A DNA stretch of 64,000 nucleotides from Bacteroidota bacterium (GTDB taxonomy: Bacteria; Bacteroidota; Bacteroidia; Chitinophagales; Chitinophagaceae). The notes beneath the pieces were generated by a model. The model saw only the letters and a list, made by a program, of their open reading frames with translations. It did no database searches and was not told the DNA's origin. A program made the position numbers and the translations under genes. Positions 9,087 through 39,233 of the stretch are shown here, in pieces; position 1 is the first letter of the stretch, and every line of letters begins with the position of its first letter. The stretch spans positions 23,177 to 87,176 of the forward strand of contig CANGUG010000010.1 in the NCBI GenBank assembly GCA_947457075.1. Reading direction: 5' to 3'.

Positions 9087-10583
9087 ATGCGCATCCCCCT
9101 TACCTTATTTTTATTTTTTGCAATGATTACCTGCAGTTGCTTAAGTAGTCATGCGCAAAATGAAGTGCGTAAAGACACAAATAATAATGAAAGTTTGTAT
9201 AGGCCAATCATACATTTTTCGCCTAAAAAAGGTTGGATGAATGATCCCAATGGAATGTTTTTTCAAAATGGGGTCTATCATTTATATTATCAATTTTATC
9301 CCAATGCCACAGTATGGGGGCCAATGCATTGGGGACACGCTACTAGCAAGGATCTGATACATTGGGAGCATAAGCCCATTGCAATATATCCCGACAGTTT
9401 AGGCTTAATTTTTTCCGGAAGTGCAGTAGTGGATAAATACAATACATCAGGCTTAGGTACACTAAAAAATCCGCCCATCATTTCCATATTTACACAACAT
9501 TCAATGGAAGGTGAAAAAGCAGGAAAAAATAATTTTCAAAATCAGAGTATTGCTTACAGCAATGACGGTGGGAATACCTGGAAAATGTATCCTGGCAATC
9601 CTGTGATTAAAAATCCAGGTATTAATGATTTTAGAGATCCTAAAGTTATTTGGCATGAACCTACTAAACATTGGATCATGGCGTTGGCAGTAAAAAATAA
9701 AGTTTCATTGTATAGTTCCGAAAATTTAAAGGATTGGAATTTTGAATCGGATTTTGGCGAACTATTGGGTAACCATGAAGGTGTATGGGAATGTCCTGAT
9801 TTATTTTCATTACCCTATAATGGAAAAACTTATTGGGTGCTATCCGTTAGTGTAAATCCAGGAGGCCCCAATAAAGGATCGGCAACACAATATTTTGTGG
9901 GTGATTTTGACGGACATAAATTCAGTACTTCTTCTAGTAAAACAAAATGGGTAGATTATGGTGCTGATAATTATGCTGGGGTAACCTGGTACAATACGGG
10001 TAATAGAAAAATAGCCATTGGATGGATGAGCAATTGGTTGTATGCACAACAAGTGCCTACTGATAAATGGAGAAGCGCCATGACCATTGCAAGAGAGTTG
10101 AATTTACAGGAAGTAGGAGAGGAAATGTATTTAACTTCAATGCCTGTTAAGGAATTGAAATTTTATAAATCAAATTATTTATCGGAGGGGCCAATAACCC
10201 AAAATTTGCCTTATGAAATTAATATACAAGGTTCAAATATCAATAGCTTCACGCTTACTTTAAATAATGAGGAAGGGGAGTCTTTGGATTTTGGATTTGA
10301 TCAATCTACTAATCAATATTTTATTGATCGAAGTTTTGCAGGGGTGCATAGTTTTCATAAGGACTTTGCTGCTTTACATTCGGCCCCAAGAATCAGTACT
10401 AAGTCTAATTTTTCATTTAAAGTTTTAATTGATAAAACTTCCATTGAAATTTTTTCAGACAATGGACTCACGGTAATGACTGATATCTTTTTTCCTACTA
10501 GCCCCTATAATAATATAGCGATCCAGTCTCAAAGTGAGGAGATTCGAAAAAATATAAAAATTAGTTCTTTATTGGCAAAGTAA
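9087..10583 (+). CDS. Glycoside hydrolase family 32 (levanase/fructan beta-fructosidase), secreted
   Basis: WMNDPNG (nucleophile), WGHATS.DL, FSGSAV, FRDPKV and WECPDLF, plus an N-terminal signal peptide. Confidence 0.93.
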   Translation: MRIPLTLFLFFAMITCSCLSSHAQNEVRKDTNNNESLYRPIIHFSPKKGWMNDPNGMFFQNGVYHLYYQFYPNATVWGPMHWGHATSKDLIHWEHKPIAIYPDSLGLIFSGSAVVDKYNTSGLGTLKNPPIISIFTQHSMEGEKAGKNNFQNQSIAYSNDGGNTWKMYPGNPVIKNPGINDFRDPKVIWHEPTKHWIMALAVKNKVSLYSSENLKDWNFESDFGELLGNHEGVWECPDLFSLPYNGKTYWVLSVSVNPGGPNKGSATQYFVGDFDGHKFSTSSSKTKWVDYGADNYAGVTWYNTGNRKIAIGWMSNWLYAQQVPTDKWRSAMTIARELNLQEVGEEMYLTSMPVKELKFYKSNYLSEGPITQNLPYEINIQGSNINSFTLTLNNEEGESLDFGFDQSTNQYFIDRSFAGVHSFHKDFAALHSAPRISTKSNFSFKVLIDKTSIEIFSDNGLTVMTDIFFPTSPYNNIAIQSQSEEIRKNIKISSLLAK

Positions 10584-27240: not shown

Positions 27241-27295
27241 GTTAATTTAAAGTTAATATTAAGTTCATATTCAGGTAACAATTTGGTAACATTAG
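27241..27295 (+). repeat. Five 11-bp-phased direct repeats (Pho-box/OmpR-type operator-like)
   Basis: GTTAATTTAAA GTTAATATTAA GTTCATATTCA GGTAACAATTT GGTAACATTAG, contiguous, about 35 nt upstream of the TonB receptor start. Confidence 0.65.
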
Positions 27296-27329
27296 TGTCT
27301 AATATTTGCGGTATAAACAACTCTATATC

Positions 27330-30089
27330 GTGAAAAGGCTATCCATACTATTTACATTCGTTTTATCTGCTTTACTAGTTCAAGCTCAAAAAGCAAAATT
27401 ATCAGGGAAGATTACCAATTCAAAAAATGAAGCACTAATTTCAGTTACAGTTTCTTTGAAAGGGGAAAAAACAATAGTGACTAAATCGGATGTGGAAGGA
27501 AGATATAGTTTCAATATTGATGTCAATAAAAATTACACTTTAGTATTAAGTTATGTAGGATACAAGGAATCAACCATCGCTAATATAAAAGCGACAAGTG
27601 ACAAAGAAGAGATTATAAAAGATGTTTTGTTAGAGGAAGCAGGTAACAAATTAACGGACGTAGTAGTTAGTACCTCAAGAGCAAATAATAAAGGTGAAAC
27701 TGCTAGTGCATTAATTGCTTATCAGAAAAATACCAATACAGTGGCTTCTGTTATTTCAGCTGAAAGTATTAAAAGAAGTCCAGATAGAAATACAGCTGAA
27801 ATTTTAAAAAGAACTCCCGGTGCTTCTATACAAGAAGGTAAATATATTGTTGTAAGAGGATTAGCAGATAGATATAATCAAGCCATGCTGAATGGAATTT
27901 TATTGACAAGTACAGAGCCTGATCGTAAAACTTTTTCTTTTGATTTATTTCCTTCACAAATCATTGATAATATCATTATTAATAAAGCATTTGTTCCTGA
28001 ATTGCCAGGAGAATGGGCTGGTGGTTTAATTCAAGTAAATACCAAAGACATTCCAACAAAAAACTTTTTCAATATTCAATTGTCAACAAGTTATAACGCT
28101 ATTACTACGGGCAAAGATTTTTACAAAGACAAAGGAGGTAAAACAGATTGGTATGGTATTGACGATGGTACAAGATCATTGCCAGCTGGATATACTACTA
28201 AGTCTAATTTTGACACTACTAATATTGCTGCTAAAACTGCCTTGGGTAAAACTATGGCTAATAACTGGGTCCCAGTTAAAACTACAGCAGCCCCCAATTT
28301 TGCATTACAAATGAATGGCGGATTTACGGGTACTTTATTTGGTAAAAAAGTGGGGGGAATGTTAGGTGCTAACTTTGCAAGAAACCAAAGATTTCAAAAT
28401 AATTTAAATCAGCAAAACACGCTTGAAGGAAATACTTTCTCAACTATTTACAAATATGCCGATGAAAAGTACATTCAAGACATTAATATGGGTGCTATTG
28501 CCGGCTTGTCTATGTACTTAAATCCATTGAATAAAATAAGCTATAAAGCCATTTTAAATGTAAAGTCAAGTAACGCCTTTACTTCAAGAACTGGTAATGA
28601 ATATACAAGAGATGATTTGATGAAGGGTAATGAATTTAATTTTACTCAAAATACTTTTTTCACCAATCAACTAAACGGTGAACATAGCTTGTCTCCTAAA
28701 TTGAAGTTTAATTGGTATGGTGCATTTAATATTTTAGACAGCTATAGTCCTGATCAAAGAAGAATTTTATATACTAAATCTACAACTGGTAATGATCCTT
28801 ATGTATTGAATATATCTAATACTTTATCTCAACAATCAGGAAGTAGAATTTTTCAAAACTTGAGCGATTATATCTATACAGCAGGTGGAGACATCTCCTA
28901 TAAAATTGGACAACAAACTATTAAAGCGGGTTATATTTTACAAATCAAGGATCGTTTGTATGATGCCAAATTATTTGCCAATTTCTTACCAAAAGACAAC
29001 CCTGCATTAAGAGCTTTAGCTCCAGATGTGGTTTTTGCTCCTGAAAATTTTGGTAATGGAACAGATAATAAATTTGGATTTGATGCCATTAAAGGAAGAA
29101 ATTTCAGGTACATGGCCAACACCATTTTGAATGGAGGATATGTGCAATTTGACAATAAATTAAGCGAAAAGTTAAGAGCAGTTTGGGGTATACGTGTGGA
29201 GGATTTCGATCAGTTAGTAGGTAGCGCAAATAAATACGATCCAAGACATACTTTATCAAGGGTTACCGACTTTCTACCTGGTTTGAATACAACTTATAAG
29301 ATTACGCAAAATAGTAATTTAAGACTTACCGCATCTCAAACAGTCATTAGACCAGAATTAAGAGAACTCTCTTTCTTGAACATCTTTGATTTTGAATTAA
29401 ATGCTTCTGTACAAGGTAACCCGTCTTTAAAAAGAACAAAAATCACCAATACGGATTTAAGGTATGAATTATATCCAGGTTCTGGTGAAGTATTTACGGT
29501 TGGTGTATTTTATAAGGACTTTGTAAACCCTATCGAACAAATATTTAGTGAAGGCGCAGGTGGATCAAGTACTTTCTCTTTCCAAAATGCCAAGAAAGCC
29601 ACTACCTATGGAATGGAAATTGAAGCAAGAAAAAAATTAAATAAATTTTTCACTTTCCAAGCCAATGCTTCTTTGATTAACAGTAGAATAAAAGACGAAA
29701 GTTTAAACATAAACAGACAATTACAAGGACAGTCCCCTTATTTAATGAACCTTGGCTTACTATATGATATAGTAGATAAAGGGTTCAATGCAACTTTATT
29801 ATTTAATCAAATTGGAGAGCGTATATACTTAGTGGGAGACATGCAAGCAGGTTCAGCCTCCCCCAATATATATGAAGCACCAAGGGCATTGGTTGATTTT
29901 CAAATGAGCAAAAAAATAATGAACAATAAAGCTGAAATTAAACTAACAGCTTCAGACATCTTAAACCAAACACAAGTTTTTTATCAAAACGTATCCACTA
30001 ATCTTAAATATGAAAAAGGAATTGATGCAGTTCGTTTTTCTAGAAGATTCGGTGCTACTTATGGAATATCATTTAATTACGCTTTATAA
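27330..30089 (+). CDS. TonB-dependent receptor (non-SusC type)
   Basis: Signal peptide, carboxypeptidase-regulatory-like domain, plug SAESIKRSPDRNTAEILKR.PG...VVRGLADRYN, FAGEW-like PGEWAGG, GNPSLK, and C-terminal YGISFNYAL. GTG at 27330 is preferred to TTG at 27306. Confidence 0.9.
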   Translation: MKRLSILFTFVLSALLVQAQKAKLSGKITNSKNEALISVTVSLKGEKTIVTKSDVEGRYSFNIDVNKNYTLVLSYVGYKESTIANIKATSDKEEIIKDVLLEEAGNKLTDVVVSTSRANNKGETASALIAYQKNTNTVASVISAESIKRSPDRNTAEILKRTPGASIQEGKYIVVRGLADRYNQAMLNGILLTSTEPDRKTFSFDLFPSQIIDNIIINKAFVPELPGEWAGGLIQVNTKDIPTKNFFNIQLSTSYNAITTGKDFYKDKGGKTDWYGIDDGTRSLPAGYTTKSNFDTTNIAAKTALGKTMANNWVPVKTTAAPNFALQMNGGFTGTLFGKKVGGMLGANFARNQRFQNNLNQQNTLEGNTFSTIYKYADEKYIQDINMGAIAGLSMYLNPLNKISYKAILNVKSSNAFTSRTGNEYTRDDLMKGNEFNFTQNTFFTNQLNGEHSLSPKLKFNWYGAFNILDSYSPDQRRILYTKSTTGNDPYVLNISNTLSQQSGSRIFQNLSDYIYTAGGDISYKIGQQTIKAGYILQIKDRLYDAKLFANFLPKDNPALRALAPDVVFAPENFGNGTDNKFGFDAIKGRNFRYMANTILNGGYVQFDNKLSEKLRAVWGIRVEDFDQLVGSANKYDPRHTLSRVTDFLPGLNTTYKITQNSNLRLTASQTVIRPELRELSFLNIFDFELNASVQGNPSLKRTKITNTDLRYELYPGSGEVFTVGVFYKDFVNPIEQIFSEGAGGSSTFSFQNAKKATTYGMEIEARKKLNKFFTFQANASLINSRIKDESLNINRQLQGQSPYLMNLGLLYDIVDKGFNATLLFNQIGERIYLVGDMQAGSASPNIYEAPRALVDFQMSKKIMNNKAEIKLTASDILNQTQVFYQNVSTNLKYEKGIDAVRFSRRFGATYGISFNYAL

Positions 30090-30127: not shown

Positions 30128-31636
30128 ATGAAACAATTATTTATTTTATCATTAGCCTTTTTAGCTGTAACTGGCTGTAGAAAAGTGGAAGCAGACGGTG
30201 AAAAGCAAATCGTTATTATTAATGCCGGTGGTACTGGTAACACAAGTCCAACTGCCAATACAGTGACTTTAAAGGGAAGAATCACAAAAGACACTACGTT
30301 ATTAGCAAAAGATATCAACTTCTTGTCTGGTATTGTGTATATCACTAAAGGAGTTACACTTACTGTTGAAGCTGGTGCCACAGTTAAAGGGCAGTTTTCT
30401 GGTGCGGATGTTTCTGCTTTAGTAATTTGCCGTGGAGCCAAAATTATAGCTAAAGGAACTGTTGACAAGCCAATTATATTTACTTCGGCCTCTGCCAATC
30501 CACAATCAGGCGATTGGGGTGGTATTGTATTGTGCGGAACTGCTCCAATTAATACAACTTTCACAGTGAACGGCGCTGCGGTAAATGGATTATACCAAGT
30601 TGAAGGAGGTGTTGATAATGCAAATGGTGACGGATTAGCGGGTGCAGGTGATGCTGCATTCCCAACTGTTAACCCTGCGGATAATTCGGGAATTTTACAA
30701 TATGTAAGAATTGAATATGCTGGATATGCTTATCAACCAGATAAAGAAATTAATAGTTTAACGATGGCTGCAGTAGGTAGTGGTACAACTATTGAATATG
30801 TTGAAGCTGCTTTTGGTAAAGACGATAGTTTTGAGTGGTTTGGTGGTACAGTGAACTGCAAATATTTAATTTCTTACAAAGGTCAGGATGATGATTTTGA
30901 CTCGGACAATGGCTATAGTGGTAATGTACAATTTGGTATTGTAATCCGTGATTCTGCGATTGCAGATATTTCTAAATCAGAAGCATTTGAATCTGACAAT
31001 AACCCAACTGGTACTACTGCCTCTCCAAAAACAAATGCTGTATTTTCAAATTTTACGCTTATTGGGCCAAGAGCAACATTAACTAATATTGGCAATAGCT
31101 TGTACCTAGCGGGTGCTCAAATTAGAAGAAACTCTGGTATTTCTATTCAAAATTCAATATTCATGGGATGGCCAATTGGTTTGTTAATTGATGCTAGTAC
31201 TGGTACTCCTACTGATTTAAATATAGTAGATAGTACTATTCGATTTAAAAATAATACTTTCGCAGGCAATAACATTAATGTAAAATATACAGTAAGTGCT
31301 AGTGCTCCAACTGGTGCTACTGATGCGAGTATGTTGGCTTGGGTGTCAACTCCGTTTTATAGAAATGCCATTGCATTGAATGCAGTGGATGCAAAGTTGA
31401 TTCAGCCATTTAACTATACCATGTTTGATGCAACTCCTTATGCAGGTTCAGCTGCACCCACTGGTATTAATTTAGTATTAGGAACTGCTGCTAATTTCAA
31501 CTATGCAAGCAATGGCTCTTTTGATGATGCTAAATTACAAAACCCTTACTTCAAGCCAGTTACTTTTAGAGGTGCTATTGGTTTAAATGGGGTGGATGCT
31601 ACTTGGTGGAAAGGTTGGGCTAAATTTAACTACTAA
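30128..31636 (+). CDS. Uncharacterised surface lipoprotein, probable parallel beta-helix, Asp-rich
   Basis: Lipobox VTGC, GDWGGIVLCG, YVRIEYAG, DKEINSLT, DDSFEWFGG, QDDDFDSDNG and AFESDN; cotranscribed with the TonB receptor. Confidence 0.75.
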   Translation: MKQLFILSLAFLAVTGCRKVEADGEKQIVIINAGGTGNTSPTANTVTLKGRITKDTTLLAKDINFLSGIVYITKGVTLTVEAGATVKGQFSGADVSALVICRGAKIIAKGTVDKPIIFTSASANPQSGDWGGIVLCGTAPINTTFTVNGAAVNGLYQVEGGVDNANGDGLAGAGDAAFPTVNPADNSGILQYVRIEYAGYAYQPDKEINSLTMAAVGSGTTIEYVEAAFGKDDSFEWFGGTVNCKYLISYKGQDDDFDSDNGYSGNVQFGIVIRDSAIADISKSEAFESDNNPTGTTASPKTNAVFSNFTLIGPRATLTNIGNSLYLAGAQIRRNSGISIQNSIFMGWPIGLLIDASTGTPTDLNIVDSTIRFKNNTFAGNNINVKYTVSASAPTGATDASMLAWVSTPFYRNAIALNAVDAKLIQPFNYTMFDATPYAGSAAPTGINLVLGTAANFNYASNGSFDDAKLQNPYFKPVTFRGAIGLNGVDATWWKGWAKFNY

Positions 31637-31690: not shown

Positions 31691-31759
31691 ATGCACGCTT
31701 AACAATTTCGTAATATCAACTGAATGTTAAGTCCGAATTTTTTTTATGAATATTTGTAT

Positions 31760-32215
31760 ATGTCATTGAACGATATTTTATATACTTACAGGGAAGCCGA
31801 CAAAGAAGATTGGCCTATTTTTTATGACGCCTATTTGAGTAATGCTGCTATACCAATAAATAAAATAAGATTCAAAGATATATTTGAAAATTACTTGCTT
31901 GATCGTTTAATGTTAGTTTTTATTTTTGAAAAAGAAGCTACTAAAAGTATAGTGGGAGGTACAATACTTAAAAAATCGAATGAATTATTTAATGAAAACA
32001 GTTTTGTTGAAATTCAACATTTGCATATTTTATCAAAGTACAGAAGATTAAATGCAGCAACACAATTGTATGCTTTTATTGAAGAGATTGCCAAAGACAA
32101 TAAGGCTACTAAAATTATGGTTTCCTGTAATCTTAATTCAACTTTAAATCAACGATTTTATTTAAGGAATAAGTTTGTTTTTTCTAAAAAAATATATCAG
32201 AAAAATATAGAGTAA
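31760..32215 (+). CDS. GNAT family N-acetyltransferase
   Basis: YREADKED, EIQHLHILSKYRRLNAATQL and FYLRNKF. The ATG at 31760 is preferred. Confidence 0.7.
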   Translation: MSLNDILYTYREADKEDWPIFYDAYLSNAAIPINKIRFKDIFENYLLDRLMLVFIFEKEATKSIVGGTILKKSNELFNENSFVEIQHLHILSKYRRLNAATQLYAFIEEIAKDNKATKIMVSCNLNSTLNQRFYLRNKFVFSKKIYQKNIE

Positions 32216-32280: not shown

Positions 32281-33165
32281 CTAAGCTTCCTTAATAACTA
32301 AGTCGTACAAATGATGAATTAATCCATCAGCCAGCCCAATTTTAGGCACTAAAACCTGTTCAACATTACACCACTTAAATATATTTGTATAAATTTCAAG
32401 TGCTGGTGCAATTACTTCTGCCCTATCTTTTTTAATGTTGTATTTTTTCATACGCTCTTCAATATTCAACTGCAGCATATCTCTATACATGTCTTTAACT
32501 GCAGTTGATTGGAGGTATTTATCGTCTTTTGACCTTAGTAGTGAAAAAATTTTATTAATATTCCCCCCTGATCCAATACCAATAATTGGCGCATAATTTT
32601 TAGCAATCATTTTGCAAGTATCTTTCAATTCCTCCCAGGCTTCATTAGTCACTTTATTGGTAAGTAAACGGACTGTGCCTATATTAACTGATTTTTGTAG
32701 TACCAACTCATTATTGCGATAGAGCGTTAGTTCAGTGCTTCCGCCACCCACATCCATATACAAGTAACTATCCTTGTTGTCTAGTAGTTCAGCAATATGA
32801 TTTTCGTAAATTATTTCAGCTTCTAGTTCACCAGAAATAATTTCAATTTCAATGCTAGTTTCGTCCTCTATTTCTTTAATTATTTCTTTGCTATTTTGGG
32901 CATCCCTCATAGCACTTGTGGCACAAGCCATATAATGCTCCACCTCATATACTTTCATTAACTGCTTGTATGCTTTTATAGTGTCAATGAGCATTTTTCG
33001 CTTGCGACTACCTATAAATCCTTTTTCAAACACGTCAAATCCCAATTGTAAAGGAATTCGAACAATATTTATTCGATTGAATGTTACTTCTTTGCCTTTT
33101 TGTTCAACTTCGCTAATTAAAAGCCTTGCTGCGTTACTTCCAATATCGATGGCTGCTAAAATCAA
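32281..33165 (-). CDS. ppx: Exopolyphosphatase (Ppx/GppA family)
   Basis: AAIDIGSNAARL, ATSAMRDA, ISGELEA, DVGGGSTE, GSGGNIN, GLADG. Confidence 0.93.
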   Translation of the reverse strand: MILAAIDIGSNAARLLISEVEQKGKEVTFNRINIVRIPLQLGFDVFEKGFIGSRKRKMLIDTIKAYKQLMKVYEVEHYMACATSAMRDAQNSKEIIKEIEDETSIEIEIISGELEAEIIYENHIAELLDNKDSYLYMDVGGGSTELTLYRNNELVLQKSVNIGTVRLLTNKVTNEAWEELKDTCKMIAKNYAPIIGIGSGGNINKIFSLLRSKDDKYLQSTAVKDMYRDMLQLNIEERMKKYNIKKDRAEVIAPALEIYTNIFKWCNVEQVLVPKIGLADGLIHHLYDLVIKEA

Positions 33166-33169
33166 TTTG

Positions 33170-35233
33170 TTATTTTTTACCTTTTAAGTATAAATAGGTA
33201 GCTTCTTGCGACTTATATTTTTTACCTATCAAAGGTACATATTTATTGGCCAAATCTGAATCAAGGATCCTGGCTTTTTGATTGTCTTTTAATTGAATAT
33301 TAATAATGTCAATTAATTCTTTTTTTATAATAGGGTCGAAAATAGGCGTTGCAACTTCAATTCGATGGTCTAAATTACGCACCATCCAATCGGCACTGGA
33401 AATATACACTTTCTCTTTTCCTTTATTATGGAATATCATTACCCTAGCGTGTTCTAAATATTGATCCACAATACTAATGGCATTTAGTTTTTGATTTCCT
33501 TTTTCATTATTGTATTTCAATGTAAGAATTCCCCTAATAATTAAATGAACTTCTACATTTGCCTTAATTGCTTTGTATAAGTGCTCAATAAGAGTTATAT
33601 CAGTTAAAGCGTTAAGTTTAATAATGATTTTTGCTTGCTTACCCTGCTTTGCGATTTTTATTTCGTTCTCAATTAATTGCATTATTGAATTTCTCATATT
33701 AATCGGCGAAATCAATAAGTGTTGCATTTTGACAATTGGCTTATCCCCTTGCTGCCAGTTTTCTAAATAAGTAAATATCCTAGTAGATTCATTCATTAAT
33801 TGTGCATTGGCAGTAAGCAAACAATGATCTGCATAAACTTTAGCAGTTTTTTCATTTAAATTGCCAGTACTTATAAATCCATATTTAATAATTTTTCCAG
33901 CAACTCTTTTTTGAATAATACAAAGTTTTGCATGTACTTTTTTGTTGGGCACGCCCACTAATACATTAACTCCTTCCTCTTCTAATATCGATTTCCATTC
34001 TAGATTTGCTTCCTCGTCAAAACGTGCTTTTAATTCTAAGAAAACCGTTACCAATTTTCCATTTCTTGCCGCATTAATTAAGGCATTAATTACTTTAGAA
34101 TTGCTTGCTAAACGATAGGCTGTAATTTTTATGCTTATAACATGGTCATCCATTGCAGCTTCTCTTAACATATCAATGATTGGATCATAGGAATGATAAG
34201 GAAAATGTAACATAACGTCCTTTTCAAGCAGTATATCCGAAACAAGCTCCTTTTTTTTAAATGCGGGGTGGATTAAAGGACTAGGTCTTGTATTTTTTAT
34301 AGGGATGATGTTGGGGAAGTCCATAAAATGCCTAAAATTATGTATATGCCCACCAGGGATCATGCTACTTTTCCTAGAAAGCTTTAATTTTTTAATCAAA
34401 AATTCAAGCATCTCAGCATTCATTTCTTTTTCATAGACAAATCGAACAGGTTTACCCTTGCGTCTATTTTTGATACCTTTTGAAATTTTATCTATAAAAT
34501 TGGCACCTACTTCTTGGTCTAAGTCAATTTCTGCGTCTTTTGTTATTTTAAATACATGCGCATCGAATTTATTAAATTTAAAGTGGGAGAATATAATCGG
34601 TAAATTATACCTAATTAAATCTTCTAGTAAAATAATACTTGATGATCCTGGTTTTGAAGGCAATAAAATAAACCGACCAATAGATTTAGAAGGAATTTCT
34701 ATTAAAGAAAATTTTTGATCATAGGCATTTGATTTATTGGCCATTACAATAGCTAAGTATAAACTTTTGTCCCTTAAATAAGGAAGCTCTGGGACATTTT
34801 CAATCATTAAGGGAATAATATAAGGACGTACCACTTCATCAAAGTAATTCTTAATAAAAGTTTTTTGTTCGAGATTCAATTTTTTATCATCAACCAATAA
34901 AATTTTATTTTCCTTTAACTCCTTATTTAAATTTTGCCATATTCTGTTAAATTCATTCTGCTGTCTTAAAACAATTCTTTGAATTTCATCCAAAATAGCC
35001 TGAGGAGTTTCAATTAAATCAATATTTTGAATATGTCCTTTTTTATCTGTGTATTCAGTCATTCTTTTCAAAGTGGCAACGCGCACCCTGAAAAATTCAT
35101 CTAAATTATTTGAAAAAATACCTAAAAACTTAATTCTTTCATTTAATGGAACTGATGGGTCGTTGGCTTCTTGTAAAACGCGCCCATTAAAACTTAACCA
35201 ACTAATATCTCTAGCAATAAATCTGTCTTTCAT
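33170..35233 (-). CDS. ppk1: Polyphosphate kinase 1
   Basis: RDISWLSFNGRVLQEA, SNNLDEFFRVRVA, HFPYHSY, ELKARFDEEAN, KVHAK, STGNLNE.TA..YAD, EHAR, SADWMVRNLDHRIEV. Confidence 0.97.
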   Translation of the reverse strand: MKDRFIARDISWLSFNGRVLQEANDPSVPLNERIKFLGIFSNNLDEFFRVRVATLKRMTEYTDKKGHIQNIDLIETPQAILDEIQRIVLRQQNEFNRIWQNLNKELKENKILLVDDKKLNLEQKTFIKNYFDEVVRPYIIPLMIENVPELPYLRDKSLYLAIVMANKSNAYDQKFSLIEIPSKSIGRFILLPSKPGSSSIILLEDLIRYNLPIIFSHFKFNKFDAHVFKITKDAEIDLDQEVGANFIDKISKGIKNRRKGKPVRFVYEKEMNAEMLEFLIKKLKLSRKSSMIPGGHIHNFRHFMDFPNIIPIKNTRPSPLIHPAFKKKELVSDILLEKDVMLHFPYHSYDPIIDMLREAAMDDHVISIKITAYRLASNSKVINALINAARNGKLVTVFLELKARFDEEANLEWKSILEEEGVNVLVGVPNKKVHAKLCIIQKRVAGKIIKYGFISTGNLNEKTAKVYADHCLLTANAQLMNESTRIFTYLENWQQGDKPIVKMQHLLISPINMRNSIMQLIENEIKIAKQGKQAKIIIKLNALTDITLIEHLYKAIKANVEVHLIIRGILTLKYNNEKGNQKLNAISIVDQYLEHARVMIFHNKGKEKVYISSADWMVRNLDHRIEVATPIFDPIIKKELIDIINIQLKDNQKARILDSDLANKYVPLIGKKYKSQEATYLYLKGKK

Positions 35234-35368
35234 ATATAACTATTTCATCACGAATTTATTATTACTATCATAAGTTACAACAAAGCTATAATAAGTTAAT
35301 AATTTATTAATAATTAGGAAATAATAAGGACATATACATTAACGTATTTTACTAAAACTACTTACCCG

Positions 35369-36211
35369 ATGGAAAAACGTTATATTGAAGTATGCGTAAT
35401 CAGTGACGTTCATTTGGGCACTTTTGGATGTCAAGCAAAAGAGGTTTTGAACTACTTAAGAAGTATTCAGCCTAAAACATTGATTCTTAATGGGGATATT
35501 ATTGATATTTGGCAGTTTAGCAAACGCTTTTTCCCTGCTAGTCACATGGCGGTCATAAAAGAGATTTTTAATATGGCCAGTAAAGGCACTAAAGTGGTTT
35601 ATATTACAGGAAACCATGACGAAGCTTTACGCAAATACGCCGATTTTGAAATGGGCAATATTTTACTTACTGATAAAATTGTATTTGAGATAAATGGTGA
35701 AAAAAATTGGGTTTTTCATGGAGATGTATTTGATAGAACCACAAAGGGAAGTGCTAAAATATTGGCTAAATTAGGTGGTTACGGTTATGATTTACTGATT
35801 ATATTGAATAGCTTATTTAACTGGATTTCAAGGTTGTTTGGACGTGAGAAAATGAGTTTTAGTAAAAAGGTTAAAAATGGGGTAAAACAAGCGGTTTCTT
35901 GGATTGGCAATTTTGAACAAACAGCAGCAGAGTTAGCCATTGAAAACGGCTATCAATATGTTATTTGTGGACATATCCATCAACCTCAGCTGCGCGTTAT
36001 TTCAACAGATAGGGGAACTGTTACTTATTTAAATAGTGGTGATTGGATCGAGAATTCAACTTCTTTAGAATATTATGATAACGCTTGGCATTTATATCAT
36101 TATAATCCAAAACAGTTTGAACATGTTTCAAAAGAAAAAATTAAAGTGGTGCATTTAAATACTGAATTAAATGTCATGACTAGTGAGGTTGCATTTCAGG
36201 TTTCACTATAA
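35369..36211 (+). CDS. plcP: Metallophosphoesterase of the LpxH-like family, most similar in motif pattern to PlcP phospholipase C
   Basis: ISDVHLGTFGCQA, GDIID, GNHDE, HGDVFD, LGGYGYD, KKVK.AV..I..FE, ICGHIH, YLNSGDWIE. Confidence 0.72.
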   Translation: MEKRYIEVCVISDVHLGTFGCQAKEVLNYLRSIQPKTLILNGDIIDIWQFSKRFFPASHMAVIKEIFNMASKGTKVVYITGNHDEALRKYADFEMGNILLTDKIVFEINGEKNWVFHGDVFDRTTKGSAKILAKLGGYGYDLLIILNSLFNWISRLFGREKMSFSKKVKNGVKQAVSWIGNFEQTAAELAIENGYQYVICGHIHQPQLRVISTDRGTVTYLNSGDWIENSTSLEYYDNAWHLYHYNPKQFEHVSKEKIKVVHLNTELNVMTSEVAFQVSL

Positions 36212-36217
36212 GTATAT

Positions 36218-37234
36218 ATGAAAATATTTTATGCAATACAAGGTACAGGGAATGGTCATATTAGTAGGGCTATTGAATTGTATCCGTATTTAAAAAAATA
36301 TGGCCAAGTTGACTTCATGTTAAGTGGGAGTAATGCAAATTTGCCAAGTAGTTTGCCAGTGAAATATAAGAGTAAGGGGCTGAGTTTATTTTATAAACAT
36401 AGTGGGGGACTTGATTATATTAAAATTTTACGCTCATTATCGCTAAGTGTCATTAAAGATGCAAAAAAATTGCCCTTAGAGGAGTATGACTTAGTCATTA
36501 ACGATTTTGATTTTGTTACTTCTTTAGCATGTAAGTTTAAAAAAATACCAAGCATACACTTTGGGCATCAAGCAAGTTTTCAAAGTAAAAAAACACCAAG
36601 ACCCTCTAAAATAGATTTTTTAGGAAATTTGATACTTGAAAAATTTGTTGAAAGCGACAGCCATATAGGACTTCATTTTGAAAATTATGATCATCATATT
36701 TACAATCCTATTATTAAGGAAGATATTATTAAGGCAACCCCTATAAACGACGGTCATATCACCGTATATCTGCCTCAATACTCAATGCAATACTTAGAGC
36801 CACATTTTTTAAAACAAAATAAATTTCATTTTGAAGTTTTTTCAAAAGAAATTGACCGAATTACTTGCAAGAAAAATATCACCTATTTCCCCATTAATAA
36901 TGAACAGTTTACAAGTAGCTTAATTCGGTGCTATGGAATTATCACTGCCGGCGGATTCGAAACACCTGCCGAAGCCATGTATATGAATAAAAAGCTATTA
37001 AGCATTCCTATCTTAAATCATTATGAACAAGCTTGCAATGCACAGGCACTTGAAAAATTGGGGGTTATGGTATTAAAGAAGATAGATGAAAAATTTGAAC
37101 AATATTTTAAAGAGTGGATTAATGAGAAAAAACCTATTAAGTTAAATTTAGCACATAGTACGGCTGATATTGTAGAAATGCTCATGAAAACCAAACAAAC
37201 CAATAAACCCAATAAATATGTATACCATTCTTAA
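36218..37234 (+). CDS. GT-B glycosyltransferase, MJ1255/VC2487-like (GT28 C-terminal-like)
   Basis: MKIFYAIQGTGNGHISRA, INDFDF.T, TAGGFETPAEA...KKLL.IP...HYEQ.CNA.AL. Confidence 0.8.
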   Translation: MKIFYAIQGTGNGHISRAIELYPYLKKYGQVDFMLSGSNANLPSSLPVKYKSKGLSLFYKHSGGLDYIKILRSLSLSVIKDAKKLPLEEYDLVINDFDFVTSLACKFKKIPSIHFGHQASFQSKKTPRPSKIDFLGNLILEKFVESDSHIGLHFENYDHHIYNPIIKEDIIKATPINDGHITVYLPQYSMQYLEPHFLKQNKFHFEVFSKEIDRITCKKNITYFPINNEQFTSSLIRCYGIITAGGFETPAEAMYMNKKLLSIPILNHYEQACNAQALEKLGVMVLKKIDEKFEQYFKEWINEKKPIKLNLAHSTADIVEMLMKTKQTNKPNKYVYHS

Positions 37235-37562
37235 TCAAAAAGGGGAGGCAGTTGCTTATATTCAAAATAGGATGATTGTAGATCTTTCTGGGGAAACAGT
37301 GTTGGGTATTTTAATTGGCGATTGTTTCTTTGGAAGAAAAAATAAAGTTATTGGAAAAATTTTCAATAAAACCGCTTATTTGGTAAATGGAGAAATTGTA
37401 GGTAAAATCATTAATAATGAAACCTATAAAAATGTAGCATTAAAAAAATCCCAAATGCAGGCTGCATGGGACATTTTGACTAATATTAAAGAACATACAA
37501 GTACATGGATTATTGAAACGAATAAATGGGCAGAGAATCCCTTGTTGTTTCACTTACTGTAA
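37218..37562 (+). CDS. Hypothetical protein with repeated short beta/Gly units (4-fold beta-flower-like)
   Basis: Repeating G-x(2-3)-hydrophobic units (KGEAVAYI, SGETVLG, NKVIGKI, NGEIVGKI); overlaps the glycosyltransferase stop by 17 nt. Confidence 0.45.
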   Translation: MYTILNQKGEAVAYIQNRMIVDLSGETVLGILIGDCFFGRKNKVIGKIFNKTAYLVNGEIVGKIINNETYKNVALKKSQMQAAWDILTNIKEHTSTWIIETNKWAENPLLFHLL

Positions 37563-37568
37563 GTATGT

Positions 37569-38000
37569 TTATTGCAGGACTTGATTCAAATCATTTTCTT
37601 TCAAAAATGTTATACAATAACCCTTAATCATTTCTCGAACCTGCTTAAATGATTCCATAATTTCTGCTTCTGAACCAGTTGCTTTAGCAGGGTCGGGAAA
37701 ATTATAATGATATTTTACTGCCTTTGTTGGAAAATAAGGACATCGTTCCTTTGCATTGTCACAAACGGTAATCACATAATCAAAATCAATTGCAAAGTAC
37801 TCGCTAATATTATTAGAAGTGTGGTTGGAAATATCAATACCATCTTCCTTCATGATGTGAATGGCTCTTGGATTTACACCATGCGTTTCCACGCCTGCCG
37901 AATATACATTTGCTATTCCCTTTGTCATTGCTGCTAAATAACCATGTGCTATTTGACTTCGGCAACTATTGCCAGTGCACAATACTAGAATATTTTTCAT
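37569..38000 (-). CDS. arsC: Arsenate reductase, thioredoxin-coupled (LMW-PTP fold)
   Basis: LCTGNSCRSQ P-loop, VCDNAKERCP redox Cys pair, DPA; in an operon with arsR and arsM. Confidence 0.9.
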   Translation of the reverse strand: MKNILVLCTGNSCRSQIAHGYLAAMTKGIANVYSAGVETHGVNPRAIHIMKEDGIDISNHTSNNISEYFAIDFDYVITVCDNAKERCPYFPTKAVKYHYNFPDPAKATGSEAEIMESFKQVREMIKGYCITFLKENDLNQVLQ

Positions 38001-38055
38001 GCCTACAAAATATTTATATCTTTTTTATGTTACTAATTTGTCAGAATAAACATCA

Positions 38056-38895
38056 TTAACAACAACCTCCTCCAGGAGTACAAGTATTTAAAGGTTTTTC
38101 TGCATATACGGTTACTGAAAAAATACCTAAGTCTGATTGGTTAAAATTAATAATATCAGTTTCTGATAAATAGTTTTTCAAAATATCATTCGGGATAACA
38201 ATAGGCTTTTCTTTTTGTAACACCACATTCTTAAATCCACAAGCATTTATTAATTCTAAATAAACTTCTTTTTGTATCGCGCCACTTACACAACCAGCGT
38301 ACATTTCTGCAGCATTGCGTAATTCATTTGGTAAAGTGCCAACTAGTACAACATCAGAAATGCTAAAATGACCACCAGGCTTCAATACACGATAAATATC
38401 AGAGAGAACTGCATGTTTATTGGGTACTAAATTTAAAACACAGTTACTTACAACCACATCCGCTGCATTGTCTGTGATTGGCATATTTTCGATATCACCT
38501 TGTCTAAATTCTACATTATTAAAACCCATTTTTTCGGCATTCGCTCTTGCTTTATCAATCATTGCTGGTGTGAAGTCTATGCCAATTACCTTGCCGCTTG
38601 TGCCGGTGCTTCTTCTTGCCACAAAGCAATCATTGCCTGCTCCCGATCCTAAATCCACCACCACATCACCCTCTTTTATTTTGGCAAATTCAGTGGGTAA
38701 TCCACATCCCAAACCCAAGTCGGCATCTGCCATATATCCATCCATTTTTGTATAATCGTCGGACATGATATTGTAAACCTCGGTACTACATCCACCTGCA
38801 CCACAACAAGAGGACATATTGGTTTCTTTGTCTTGCAATGCAATTTCACTGTATTTTGCTTTTACAATTTCTTTTAATTCTAATTCAGTTTTCAT
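38056..38895 (-). CDS. arsM: Arsenite S-adenosylmethionine methyltransferase
   Basis: SSCCG, LGLGCGLP, VDLGSGAG.DCF, SNCVLNL and YAGCVSGA carry the conserved ArsM cysteines. Confidence 0.92.
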   Translation of the reverse strand: MKTELELKEIVKAKYSEIALQDKETNMSSCCGAGGCSTEVYNIMSDDYTKMDGYMADADLGLGCGLPTEFAKIKEGDVVVDLGSGAGNDCFVARRSTGTSGKVIGIDFTPAMIDKARANAEKMGFNNVEFRQGDIENMPITDNAADVVVSNCVLNLVPNKHAVLSDIYRVLKPGGHFSISDVVLVGTLPNELRNAAEMYAGCVSGAIQKEVYLELINACGFKNVVLQKEKPIVIPNDILKNYLSETDIINFNQSDLGIFSVTVYAEKPLNTCTPGGGCC

Positions 38896-38918
38896 AAATA
38901 TTTATTTTAGTATTTTTA

Positions 38919-39233
38919 TTAACAACATTTTTTTGCAATCATAATTGAGTCAAACATTTTATTAAATAGTACACTCATTTTTGACCAATTAGTTTCATCT
39001 ATACAATAACATGTTTTCACACCGTCAATTTCACCTTTAATTATACCGGCTTCCTTTAATTCTTTTAAATGTTGAGATACAGTACTTTGTGACAGGGGTA
39101 ATTCATCTACAATATCACCACATATGCAAGTTTGCTTCTTTAATAATAAAGAAATAATAGCTACTCTTGCTGGGTGACCTAACGCTTTTGCGAATTGCGC
39201 CAACTGCGCTTCTTTGTTTGTATAAGTAGACAT
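38919..39233 (-). CDS. arsR: ArsR/SmtB family transcriptional repressor
   Basis: [32 protein letters not shown] and C-terminal CC. Confidence 0.92.

Follow-up and report, generated by a model that had tools for sequence, protein, structure and literature searches.

A PlcP-type esterase and a PF13528 glycosyltransferase form a conserved gene pair in Bacteroidota: a probable membrane-lipid remodelling operon

All characterised PlcP enzymes use glycerophospholipids as substrates, and the diacylglycerol (DAG) that they release is passed on to a lipid synthase encoded next to plcP (PMC4796936, PMC8528852). The gene after plcP in Proteobacteria is agt, encoding a glycosyltransferase (GT) of family GT4 (PMC8528852, PMC4796936), and the Agt products are alpha-linked. 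Among the major degraders in soils, lakes, oceans and the gut are the Bacteroidota, whose membrane phosphorus economy is known in outline only. Here we analyze a gene pair from a Bacteroidota bacterium of the family Chitinophagaceae (assembly GCA_947457075.1), located in a stretch of 64,000 nucleotides of contig CANGUG010000010.1 (positions 23,177 to 87,176 of the forward strand; hereafter the window, numbered from its first letter). The pair consists of a plcP-like esterase gene (35369-36211, plus strand) and, directly downstream, a gene for a GT-B glycosyltransferase (36218-37234, plus strand) of a family different from that of Agt. The two genes are probably a membrane-lipid remodelling operon, by which phospholipids are exchanged for glycolipids under phosphate shortage.

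Gene arrangements of this kind were previously reported by Sebastián et al. (2016, ISME J), who described plcP immediately 5' of putative glycosyltransferases ('types 3 and 5' arrangements), and whose Supplementary Table S2 records an 'Uncharacterised glycosyltransferase' near plcP for about 45 strains, mostly Bacteroidetes (e.g. Dokdonia, Polaribacter, Cytophaga hutchinsonii, Pedobacter and Algoriphagus) and a few non-Bacteroidetes (e.g. Rhodothermus) (PMC4796936). The same study found by reverse-transcription PCR that Dokdonia MED134 induces plcP under phosphorus (P) starvation, with loss of one third of its phospholipid P; two plcP copies are listed for this strain, and the paper does not state which of them is P-induced (PMC4796936). 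In Flavobacterium johnsoniae, PlcP and a glycosyl transferase were grouped under 'lipid remodelling' by Lidbury et al. (2020), with Fjoh_4577 'PlcP' increased by a log2 fold change of 8.6 on inorganic phosphate (Pi) starvation, and the PUSIII/'FI cluster' (TonB-dependent transporter, FI lipoprotein and ppk) was among the most strongly induced loci (PMC8115612). An earlier sequence-only reading of the window, which presented the pair as a candidate phospholipid-to-glycolipid route, thus rated its novelty too highly, the pairing of plcP with an 'uncharacterised glycosyltransferase' being already present in Table S2. Our literature searches found no later paper characterising a plcP-adjacent Bacteroidota GT.

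The esterase is a 280-aa metallophosphoesterase from the PlcP clade of the LpxH-like superfamily, and the GT is a 338-aa protein (PF13528, Glyco_trans_1_3; TIGR00661-like). Their open reading frames (ORFs) lie on the same strand, and the GT ATG follows the esterase stop after a gap of 6 nt (36212-36217), as the sequence-only reading had stated from the ORF list. The esterase contains SDVHLGTFGCQA (aa 12-23), LGGYGYD (aa 135-141), CGHIH (aa 200-204) and NSGDWIE (aa 222-228), and the GT contains QGTGNGHISRA (aa 8-18). All the motifs quoted in that reading were found, with the exception of 'KVK.AV..I..FE', which in the window protein reads VK.AV..I..FE (aa 172-183, in the segment KKVKNGVKQAVSWIGNFE / VKQAVSWIGNFE); the literal KVK.AV form belongs to Pseudomonas aeruginosa PA3219 (KVKTAVNFISDFE). 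Close homologs of both proteins are found in freshwater Chitinophagaceae and in Sediminibacterium-like genomes.

Several lines of evidence assign the esterase to the PlcP type and not to the LpxH type. It matches Pfam Metallophos and Metallophos_2, and falls below the cutoffs of both NCBIfam LpxH equivalog models (NF003743, 55.0 bits, cutoff 134; TIGR01854, 50.6 bits, cutoff 190.35). Its sequence identity is 38-39% to PA3219 and 33-36% to Sinorhizobium meliloti PlcP, compared to 20-25% to LpxH-type proteins. In a tblastn search against PLSDB, a collection that includes mislabelled chromosomes, it scored 155 bits to PA3219 and 135 bits to S. meliloti PlcP, and enterobacterial lpxH was not returned; scores against the solved LpxH structures were 28-39 bits (32 bits for P. 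aeruginosa LpxH, 5B49). The search recovered P. aeruginosa WP_003091510 (39% identity, 155 bits), with a GT4 'family 1' glycosyltransferase downstream, and the S. meliloti gene adjoining sinR/sinI (36% identity to the esterase). The former two genes constitute the published PA3219-PA3218 plcP-agt1 operon (PMC8528852). The S. meliloti (locus L001) and Pseudomonas (locus L002) references are 47% identical to one another, in agreement with the published value of 46% for PA3219 and S. meliloti PlcP (PMC8528852). The record of L001 (CP090106.1), labelled 'S. meliloti pSymB' in PLSDB, is 3.72 Mb in length, carries sinI/sinR and plcP, and looks chromosomal; several further 'plasmid' records used here are chromosomal contigs as well.

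In a neighbor-joining (NJ) tree constructed from a MAFFT alignment (253 columns, 200 bootstraps), the window protein, seven GT-adjacent Bacteroidota esterases, PA3219, S. meliloti PlcP, and homologs from Mitsuaria and Thiodictyon form a PlcP clade with 100% bootstrap support, standing apart from the LpxH proteins of Escherichia coli and Ralstonia and from the LpxH-type group of Bacteroidota. A phylogeny including PlcP and LpxH references, suggested in the sequence-only reading as a check, therefore places the esterase with PlcP. Six alignment blocks are present in all PlcP-type sequences and in none of the LpxH-type sequences: SD(V/L)HLG..(C/S)., GDI(I/V)D.W, L-A-.-LG...Y, S(F/L)S..VK.AV..I..FE, CGHIH and GDW(V/I)E. 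The metallophosphoesterase motifs DxH (13-15), GD (42-43), GNHD (81-84), HGD (117-119) and GHIH (201-204) are all found in the esterase, and the metal ligands are complete (D13/H15, D43, N82-H83, H117 and H202/H204). The use of GNRD versus GNHD as an LpxH/PlcP discriminator was considered and dropped, as Bacteroidota LpxH-type proteins also contain GNHD. In the AlphaFold2 (AF2) model, the catalytic core is confident and the helical cap (residues 123-180) is poorly defined. The best Foldseek matches of the model, and its only close structural relatives, are LpxH folds, with no PlcP structure among the matches. No transmembrane (TM) segment or signal peptide was predicted. Based on these sequence comparisons, the esterase very probably belongs to the PlcP type and not to 'LpxH', and is predicted to be an intracellular phospholipase C.

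Further support comes from a second, shorter paralog of LpxH type. In Bacteroidales, this paralog is exemplified by Bacteroides finegoldii WP_237923683 (254 aa, 92 bits on TIGR01854), which as a query retrieves genuine lpxH genes, among them those of E. coli, Klebsiella and Neisseria. The score of the Bacteroidota LpxH-type group also stays under the NCBIfam LpxH cutoff (92 versus 190 bits), and the group contains GNHD instead of the proteobacterial GNRD. Parabacteroides distasonis TSDC17.2-1.1 contains an LpxH-type gene (UNS60_RS12415) in addition to a PlcP-type gene (UNS60_RS17625) and a PF13528 GT gene (UNS60_RS17620). Sediminibacterium salmoneum NBRC 103935, a member of the same family as the window, contains the gene pair (locus L025) and an LpxH-type gene (WP_216593231.1) on the same 3,246,830-bp scaffold (the length of scaffold00001). 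WP_216593231.1 shares 39% identity with the B. finegoldii LpxH-type protein and 25% with the window esterase, and its gene lies in a housekeeping neighbourhood with ftsH and rsfS. In the records of B. finegoldii and Phocaeicola, both carrying the LpxH-type gene, no PlcP-type gene was found; within the 64-kb window, no second LpxH-like gene is present. The presence of a separate LpxH-type gene in pair-carrying relatives, which the sequence-only reading had asked about, therefore favours the PlcP reading of the esterase. The annotation pipeline PGAP gives one product name, UDP-2,3-diacylglucosamine diphosphatase, with the Gene Ontology term 'lipid A biosynthetic process', to both PlcP-type and LpxH-type paralogs (e.g. 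L003 5992-6762 versus L008 3998-4777, both P. distasonis; also L004 5992-6756).

The downstream GT matches PF13528 with 89.1 bits (residues 1-288, gathering score 25) and TIGR00661 (MJ1255/VC2487) with 155.9 bits (model positions 1-311 of 321, cutoff 195.9). Its description as 'MJ1255/VC2487-type' thus stands in the sense of a TIGR00661 relative, but not of a member by the NCBIfam cutoff. The family is of modest size, counting 2112 representative clusters with E<=1e-3 and 240 with E<=1e-30. A single-sequence PDB search with the GT gave no significant match, and a search with the family profile gave weak UDP-glycosyltransferase (UGT) matches covering only the C-terminal nucleotide-sugar motif (best E 7.6e-4). 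The AF2 model, built from 33 homologs (predicted local distance difference test 88.5, predicted template modelling (TM) score 0.87), gave Foldseek matches to the GT1 enzymes YojK, YjiC, SnogD, SpnP, GtfA/D, OleD, plant UGTs and a sterol glucosyltransferase, and also to MurG (GT28); for YojK, YjiC, GtfD, OleD and MurG, the Foldseek probability was 1.0, with E of about 1e-8 and TM-scores of 0.5-0.64. The model is thus that of a GT-B fold enzyme, GT1/GT28-like, with two Rossmann-like domains. In an hhalign alignment, the C-terminal GGFETPAEA...HYEQACNA of the GT aligns with SGALTVSEI...DRQQYWNA of MurG, a block which we take to hold the UDP-GlcNAc-binding residues, and the N-terminal GTGNGH, a Gly-rich loop ending in His, presumably resembles the MurG G-loop. 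No TM segment was predicted in the GT. It lacks any match to the GT4 Pfam domains (PF13439 and PF00534), and a relationship to Agt was ruled out by BLASTP against P. aeruginosa Agt1 (GT4; E 4.2), which bears out the earlier suggestion that the neighbour is a GT-B enzyme from a different family. Its resemblance to these families suggests that the GT is an inverting UDP-sugar:lipid glycosyltransferase. As enzymes of GT1 and GT28 work with inversion of the anomeric configuration, a beta-linked GT product is predicted. Literature searches for TIGR00661, PF13528, MJ1255 or VC2487 found no functional study.

The conservation of the pair was studied by a synteny scan based on the GT alignment, with one genome per species, giving 80 loci containing the GT. 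All but one of these have Bacteroidota titles (79/80; Chitinophagia, Flavobacterium, Sphingobacteriia and Saprospiria), the exception being a 6-kb contig of a metagenome-assembled genome titled Klebsiella pneumoniae (L058), in which the pair resembles Flavobacterium pairs. A full-length esterase homolog lies directly upstream on the same strand in 69/80 loci. In the others, the esterase is cut by the contig end (3/80), frameshifted (1/80; L091, 7132-7936), reduced to an N-terminal remnant (2/80; L062 7679-7911 and L063 7726-7932), absent (4/80; L043, L046, L076 and L086), or not judgeable with the GT at the contig edge (1/80; L047). Clustering of the four genes on each side of the GT in 78 loci showed that the esterase is the sole conserved neighbour (70/78 loci), the remaining neighbours being lineage-specific; no sphingolipid or carotenoid genes recurred beside the pair. 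The pair is also present in Aureibacter (Cytophagia) and in P. distasonis, where the two genes share a 4-nt overlap and the GT has 23% identity to that of the window. The pair is thus a conserved operon across Bacteroidota, far beyond chance, and this synteny gives good support to the view that the two genes are likely to be functionally coupled in one lipid pathway. The slot after plcP is occupied by the GT4 enzyme Agt in Proteobacteria and by a PF13528 GT in Bacteroidota, a classic case of non-orthologous displacement. The occupation of the same slot by unrelated GTs is the main argument for a shared role.

In the window, a 114-aa ORF (37218-37562, plus strand), which overlaps the GT stop by 17 nt and has only sub-threshold Pfam matches to Bflower ('beta-flower'), has homologs directly 3' of the GT only in the closest relatives (11/12 loci, L012-L023), with a homolog in L064 located upstream on the opposite strand; it is possibly a third, lineage-specific member of the operon. 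In Flavobacterium frigoris (L043), the PF13528 GT stands alone, adjoining a tetratricopeptide repeat gene and an Mpo1-like gene (PF06127, 2-hydroxy fatty acid dioxygenase-like; 9236-9697), the latter right after the GT. An Mpo1-like gene is also found near plcP-agt1 of P. aeruginosa (L002 8435-8752), and may be another lipid-related association.

Outside the operon, the window pair is flanked by genes for polyphosphate metabolism. The polyphosphate kinase gene ppk1 (33170-35233, minus strand; TIGR03705, 688 bits) is divergent from plcP, with an intergenic region of 135 bp, and is followed downstream by the exopolyphosphatase gene ppx (32281-33165, minus strand; Pfam Ppx-GppA; TIGR03706, 216 bits, cutoff 307). 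ppk1 is found in the same locus as the pair in 16/80 loci, and adjoins it in the closest relatives. The same adjacency occurs in an unrelated phylum, in the betaproteobacterium Mitsuaria sp. 7 (L006 3896-8679), where a PlcP-type gene lies directly beside ppk1 and ppx. Further upstream are genes for a TonB-dependent receptor (27306-30089; CarbopepD_reg_2 and Plug), a 502-aa lipoprotein with no Pfam match (30128-31636) and a GNAT protein with a weak PhnO-like match (31724-32215). The TonB receptor, lipoprotein, ppx and ppk1 together resemble the Pi-starvation-induced PUSIII/'FI cluster' of F. johnsoniae.

The ppk1/plcP intergenic region contains a direct repeat, TTAAT-N6-TTAAT, with an 11-bp period (35296-35311), which is kept in close relatives. 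Pairs of TTAAT at period 11 occur in 23/68 upstream regions, compared to 2-14 at other periods, and a triple repeat with the same period (TTAAT/TTAAT/TTCAT, 27242-27268) precedes the TonB receptor gene. OmpR/PhoB-type regulators bind 11-bp direct repeats, and TTAAT-N6-TTAAT is a candidate site for a regulator of this type, proposed from sequence as a lead only. A second element, the box CGTATTTTAC (35343-35352, plus strand), starts 26 nt and ends 17 nt before the plcP ATG. Its consensus CGTwwTTTAC is kept in most of 12 aligned upstream regions, with L021 and L022 off by one base, and in combination with upstream TTAAY/TWAY boxes the pattern matches 7 related loci, making it a candidate promoter (-7-like) element. 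By inspection, no E. coli-type Pho box (CTGTCAT-N4-CTGTCAT) was evident upstream of the operon.

The observed esterase clade, GT fold class, operon conservation and separate LpxH-type gene in related genomes suggest a mechanism for the pair. The PlcP-type esterase, cytoplasmic and membrane-peripheral, would cleave the phosphodiester of glycerophospholipids (in Bacteroidota mainly phosphatidylethanolamine, PE) to form DAG and the phospho-headgroup, from which phosphorus would then be recycled. The co-translated GT-B enzyme would transfer a sugar from a UDP-sugar onto DAG, forming a phosphorus-free glycolipid. Given the GT1/GT28-like (inverting) fold, this product would be a beta-glycoside, in contrast to the alpha-linked products of the proteobacterial GT4 Agt. 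Expression of the operon is probably increased under phosphate limitation, from a promoter region shared with ppk1-ppx. The conversion of PlcP-derived DAG into a P-free glycolipid by the GT is plausible by analogy, based on the gene displacement and the phosphate-related context. For the complete route from PE through DAG to beta-glycosyl-DAG under Pi limitation, with its proposed substrates, product, anomeric configuration and regulation, we consider the chances to be even. A broader proposal is more tentative and may well be wrong: that the PF13528/TIGR00661-like GT is an inverting lipid GT which replaces Agt after plcP throughout Bacteroidota, making a beta-linked, P-free glycolipid missed by targeted lipidomics. 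In this broader proposal, the lipid backbone could be DAG or another Bacteroidota lipid, and control could be exerted through the TTAAT-N6-TTAAT site shared with ppk1-ppx and the PUSIII-like cluster.

Several observations weigh against the proposed remodelling route. P-starved Dokdonia MED134, which is listed with a plcP beside an uncharacterised GT, was enriched in aminolipids, with no glycolipid reported (PMC4796936); this result is the main evidence against a simple monoglycosyldiacylglycerol (MGDG) or glucuronic acid diacylglycerol (GADG) product. We infer that the GTs of Sebastián et al. belong to PF13528, the paper itself giving no GT family. Our literature searches turned up neither biochemical nor lipidomic data on any member of the GT family. 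The GT is found without an adjoining esterase in four species and with esterase remnants only in two, which means that the GT can do without a plcP beside it. Regarding regulation, TTAAT-N6-TTAAT is not enriched across the window (48 found versus 43 expected), phasing of about 11 bp in AT-rich promoters can arise without a regulator, and the sole metatranscriptome containing the window sequence had low-depth contigs only, with no depth over the esterase.

Some of these observations are shared with the strongest alternative, in which the pair remodels a lipid other than a DAG lipid. For example, the headgroup of a phosphosphingolipid (ceramide phosphoethanolamine or phosphoinositol) might be removed by the esterase, with the GT making a glycosylceramide; in a variant, the GT might glycosylate some other hydrophobic acceptor (e.g. 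a carotenoid, a polyprenol-linked compound or the hydroxyl of an aminolipid), for which the esterase would supply or recycle a precursor. Many Bacteroidota make sphingolipids and aminolipids, some species retain the GT without the esterase, and the nearest folds of the GT (UGTs, macrolide GTs, sterol GT and MurG) accept diverse hydrophobic aglycones. The absence of reported DAG glycolipids in Dokdonia, despite plcP beside an uncharacterised GT, points in the same direction (PMC4796936). However, for every characterised PlcP the substrate is a glycerophospholipid and the DAG goes to the lipid synthase next door (PMC4796936, PMC8528852), the pair is present in lineages not known for sphingolipids, and sphingolipid or carotenoid genes are not recurrent next to it. 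We regard both variants as unlikely, though deserving consideration.

Less probable still is a pathway outside phosphate economy, in which the esterase cleaves a nucleotide-activated or pyrophosphate-linked lipid or sugar (e.g. CDP-diacylglycerol, or a UDP-acylsugar as in the LpxH reaction) and the GT uses the product for envelope synthesis. This would fit the solved relatives, which are LpxH pyrophosphatases only, the PGAP name, and the poor modelling of the cap domain that would define the substrate. By contrast, the esterase identity to PlcP is about 15 points above that to any LpxH, PlcP-specific cap motifs are shared, and this reading is also opposed by the phosphate-related gene surroundings and by the P induction published for flavobacterial homologs. 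Finally, a housekeeping LpxH for lipid A beside an unrelated envelope glycosyltransferase, suggested by the database product name and by weak LpxH-model matches (E of about 1e-14), is very improbable and was ruled out by the sub-cutoff scores with both hidden Markov models, the tree topology and the more LpxH-like paralogs in the pair-carrying S. salmoneum and P. distasonis, as well as by the lack of a PlcP-type gene in the B. finegoldii and Phocaeicola records carrying the LpxH-type gene and the degraded or absent esterase beside the GT in six species.

Downstream of the pair, the window contains an arsenic-resistance-like operon on the minus strand (37569-39233), consisting of genes for an ArsR-family regulator (38919-39233), an S-adenosylmethionine-dependent methyltransferase with Cys-rich termini, ArsM-like (38056-38895), and a low-molecular-weight-phosphatase-type ArsC (37569-38000).

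If the membrane-lipid remodelling reading is true, it would give a first function to a widespread uncharacterised GT family and reveal a Bacteroidota-specific branch of phosphate-stress lipid renovation. A GT acting as glycolipid synthase after PlcP would predict a new beta-glycolipid class, a possible biomarker of P stress. The names 'UDP-2,3-diacylglucosamine diphosphatase / lipid A biosynthesis', now given to both paralogs, could also be corrected.

Among known systems, LpxH shares its superfamily and fold with the esterase, comprising a calcineurin-like core with a helical cap, but differs in sequence (20-25% identity, with the esterase below the equivalog cutoffs) and in length, the esterase having about 30-40 additional residues and a C-terminal tail. 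MurG/GT28 and the GT1 UGTs (YojK, YjiC, OleD and GtfA/D) have the GT-B fold in common with the window GT, for which a lipophilic acceptor is likewise expected; sequence similarity is marginal, and the window GT is shorter (338 aa, compared to about 390-410 aa for GT1 UGTs and 355 aa for MurG). The Bacteroides fragilis alpha-galactosylceramide synthase BF9343_3149 is also a cytoplasmic GT-B glycolipid synthase from Bacteroidota, but is a retaining, ceramide-specific GT4 enzyme (PMC9692976), unrelated to the window GT and with no reported plcP linkage.

The Pi regulon of F. johnsoniae includes a PlcP homolog and a MurG-like GT proposed for lipid remodelling, and genes of these kinds lie together in the window. 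In F. johnsoniae, compared with the window by description only, the PlcP is described as an 'orphan', and Fjoh_0541, the induced GT, belongs to the phoBR operon and has another Pfam domain (pf04101). Equivalence of the window GT to Fjoh_0541 is unlikely, as in none of the GT loci does a gene for a response regulator or kinase adjoin the PF13528 GT.

A close counterpart is the PlcP-Agt pathway (S. meliloti SMc00171; Phaeobacter MED193; SAR11 HTCC7211; P. aeruginosa PA3219/PA3218/PA0842), with a homologous esterase (33-39% identity) from the same clade with the same catalytic and cap motifs, a cytoplasmic GT-B gene next in the operon, and a phosphate-related context. The difference lies in the GT: Agt is a retaining GT4 enzyme (PF13439/PF00534), while the window GT is a PF13528 protein, GT1/GT28-like, predicted to be inverting, and not homologous to Agt. 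The plcP-GT pairs listed by Sebastián et al. for marine Bacteroidetes seem to be arranged as in the window, with plcP directly upstream of a non-Agt GT. The arrangement has thus been published since 2016, and the window is a further instance, adding to that list a freshwater Chitinophagaceae case with ppk1-ppx next door.

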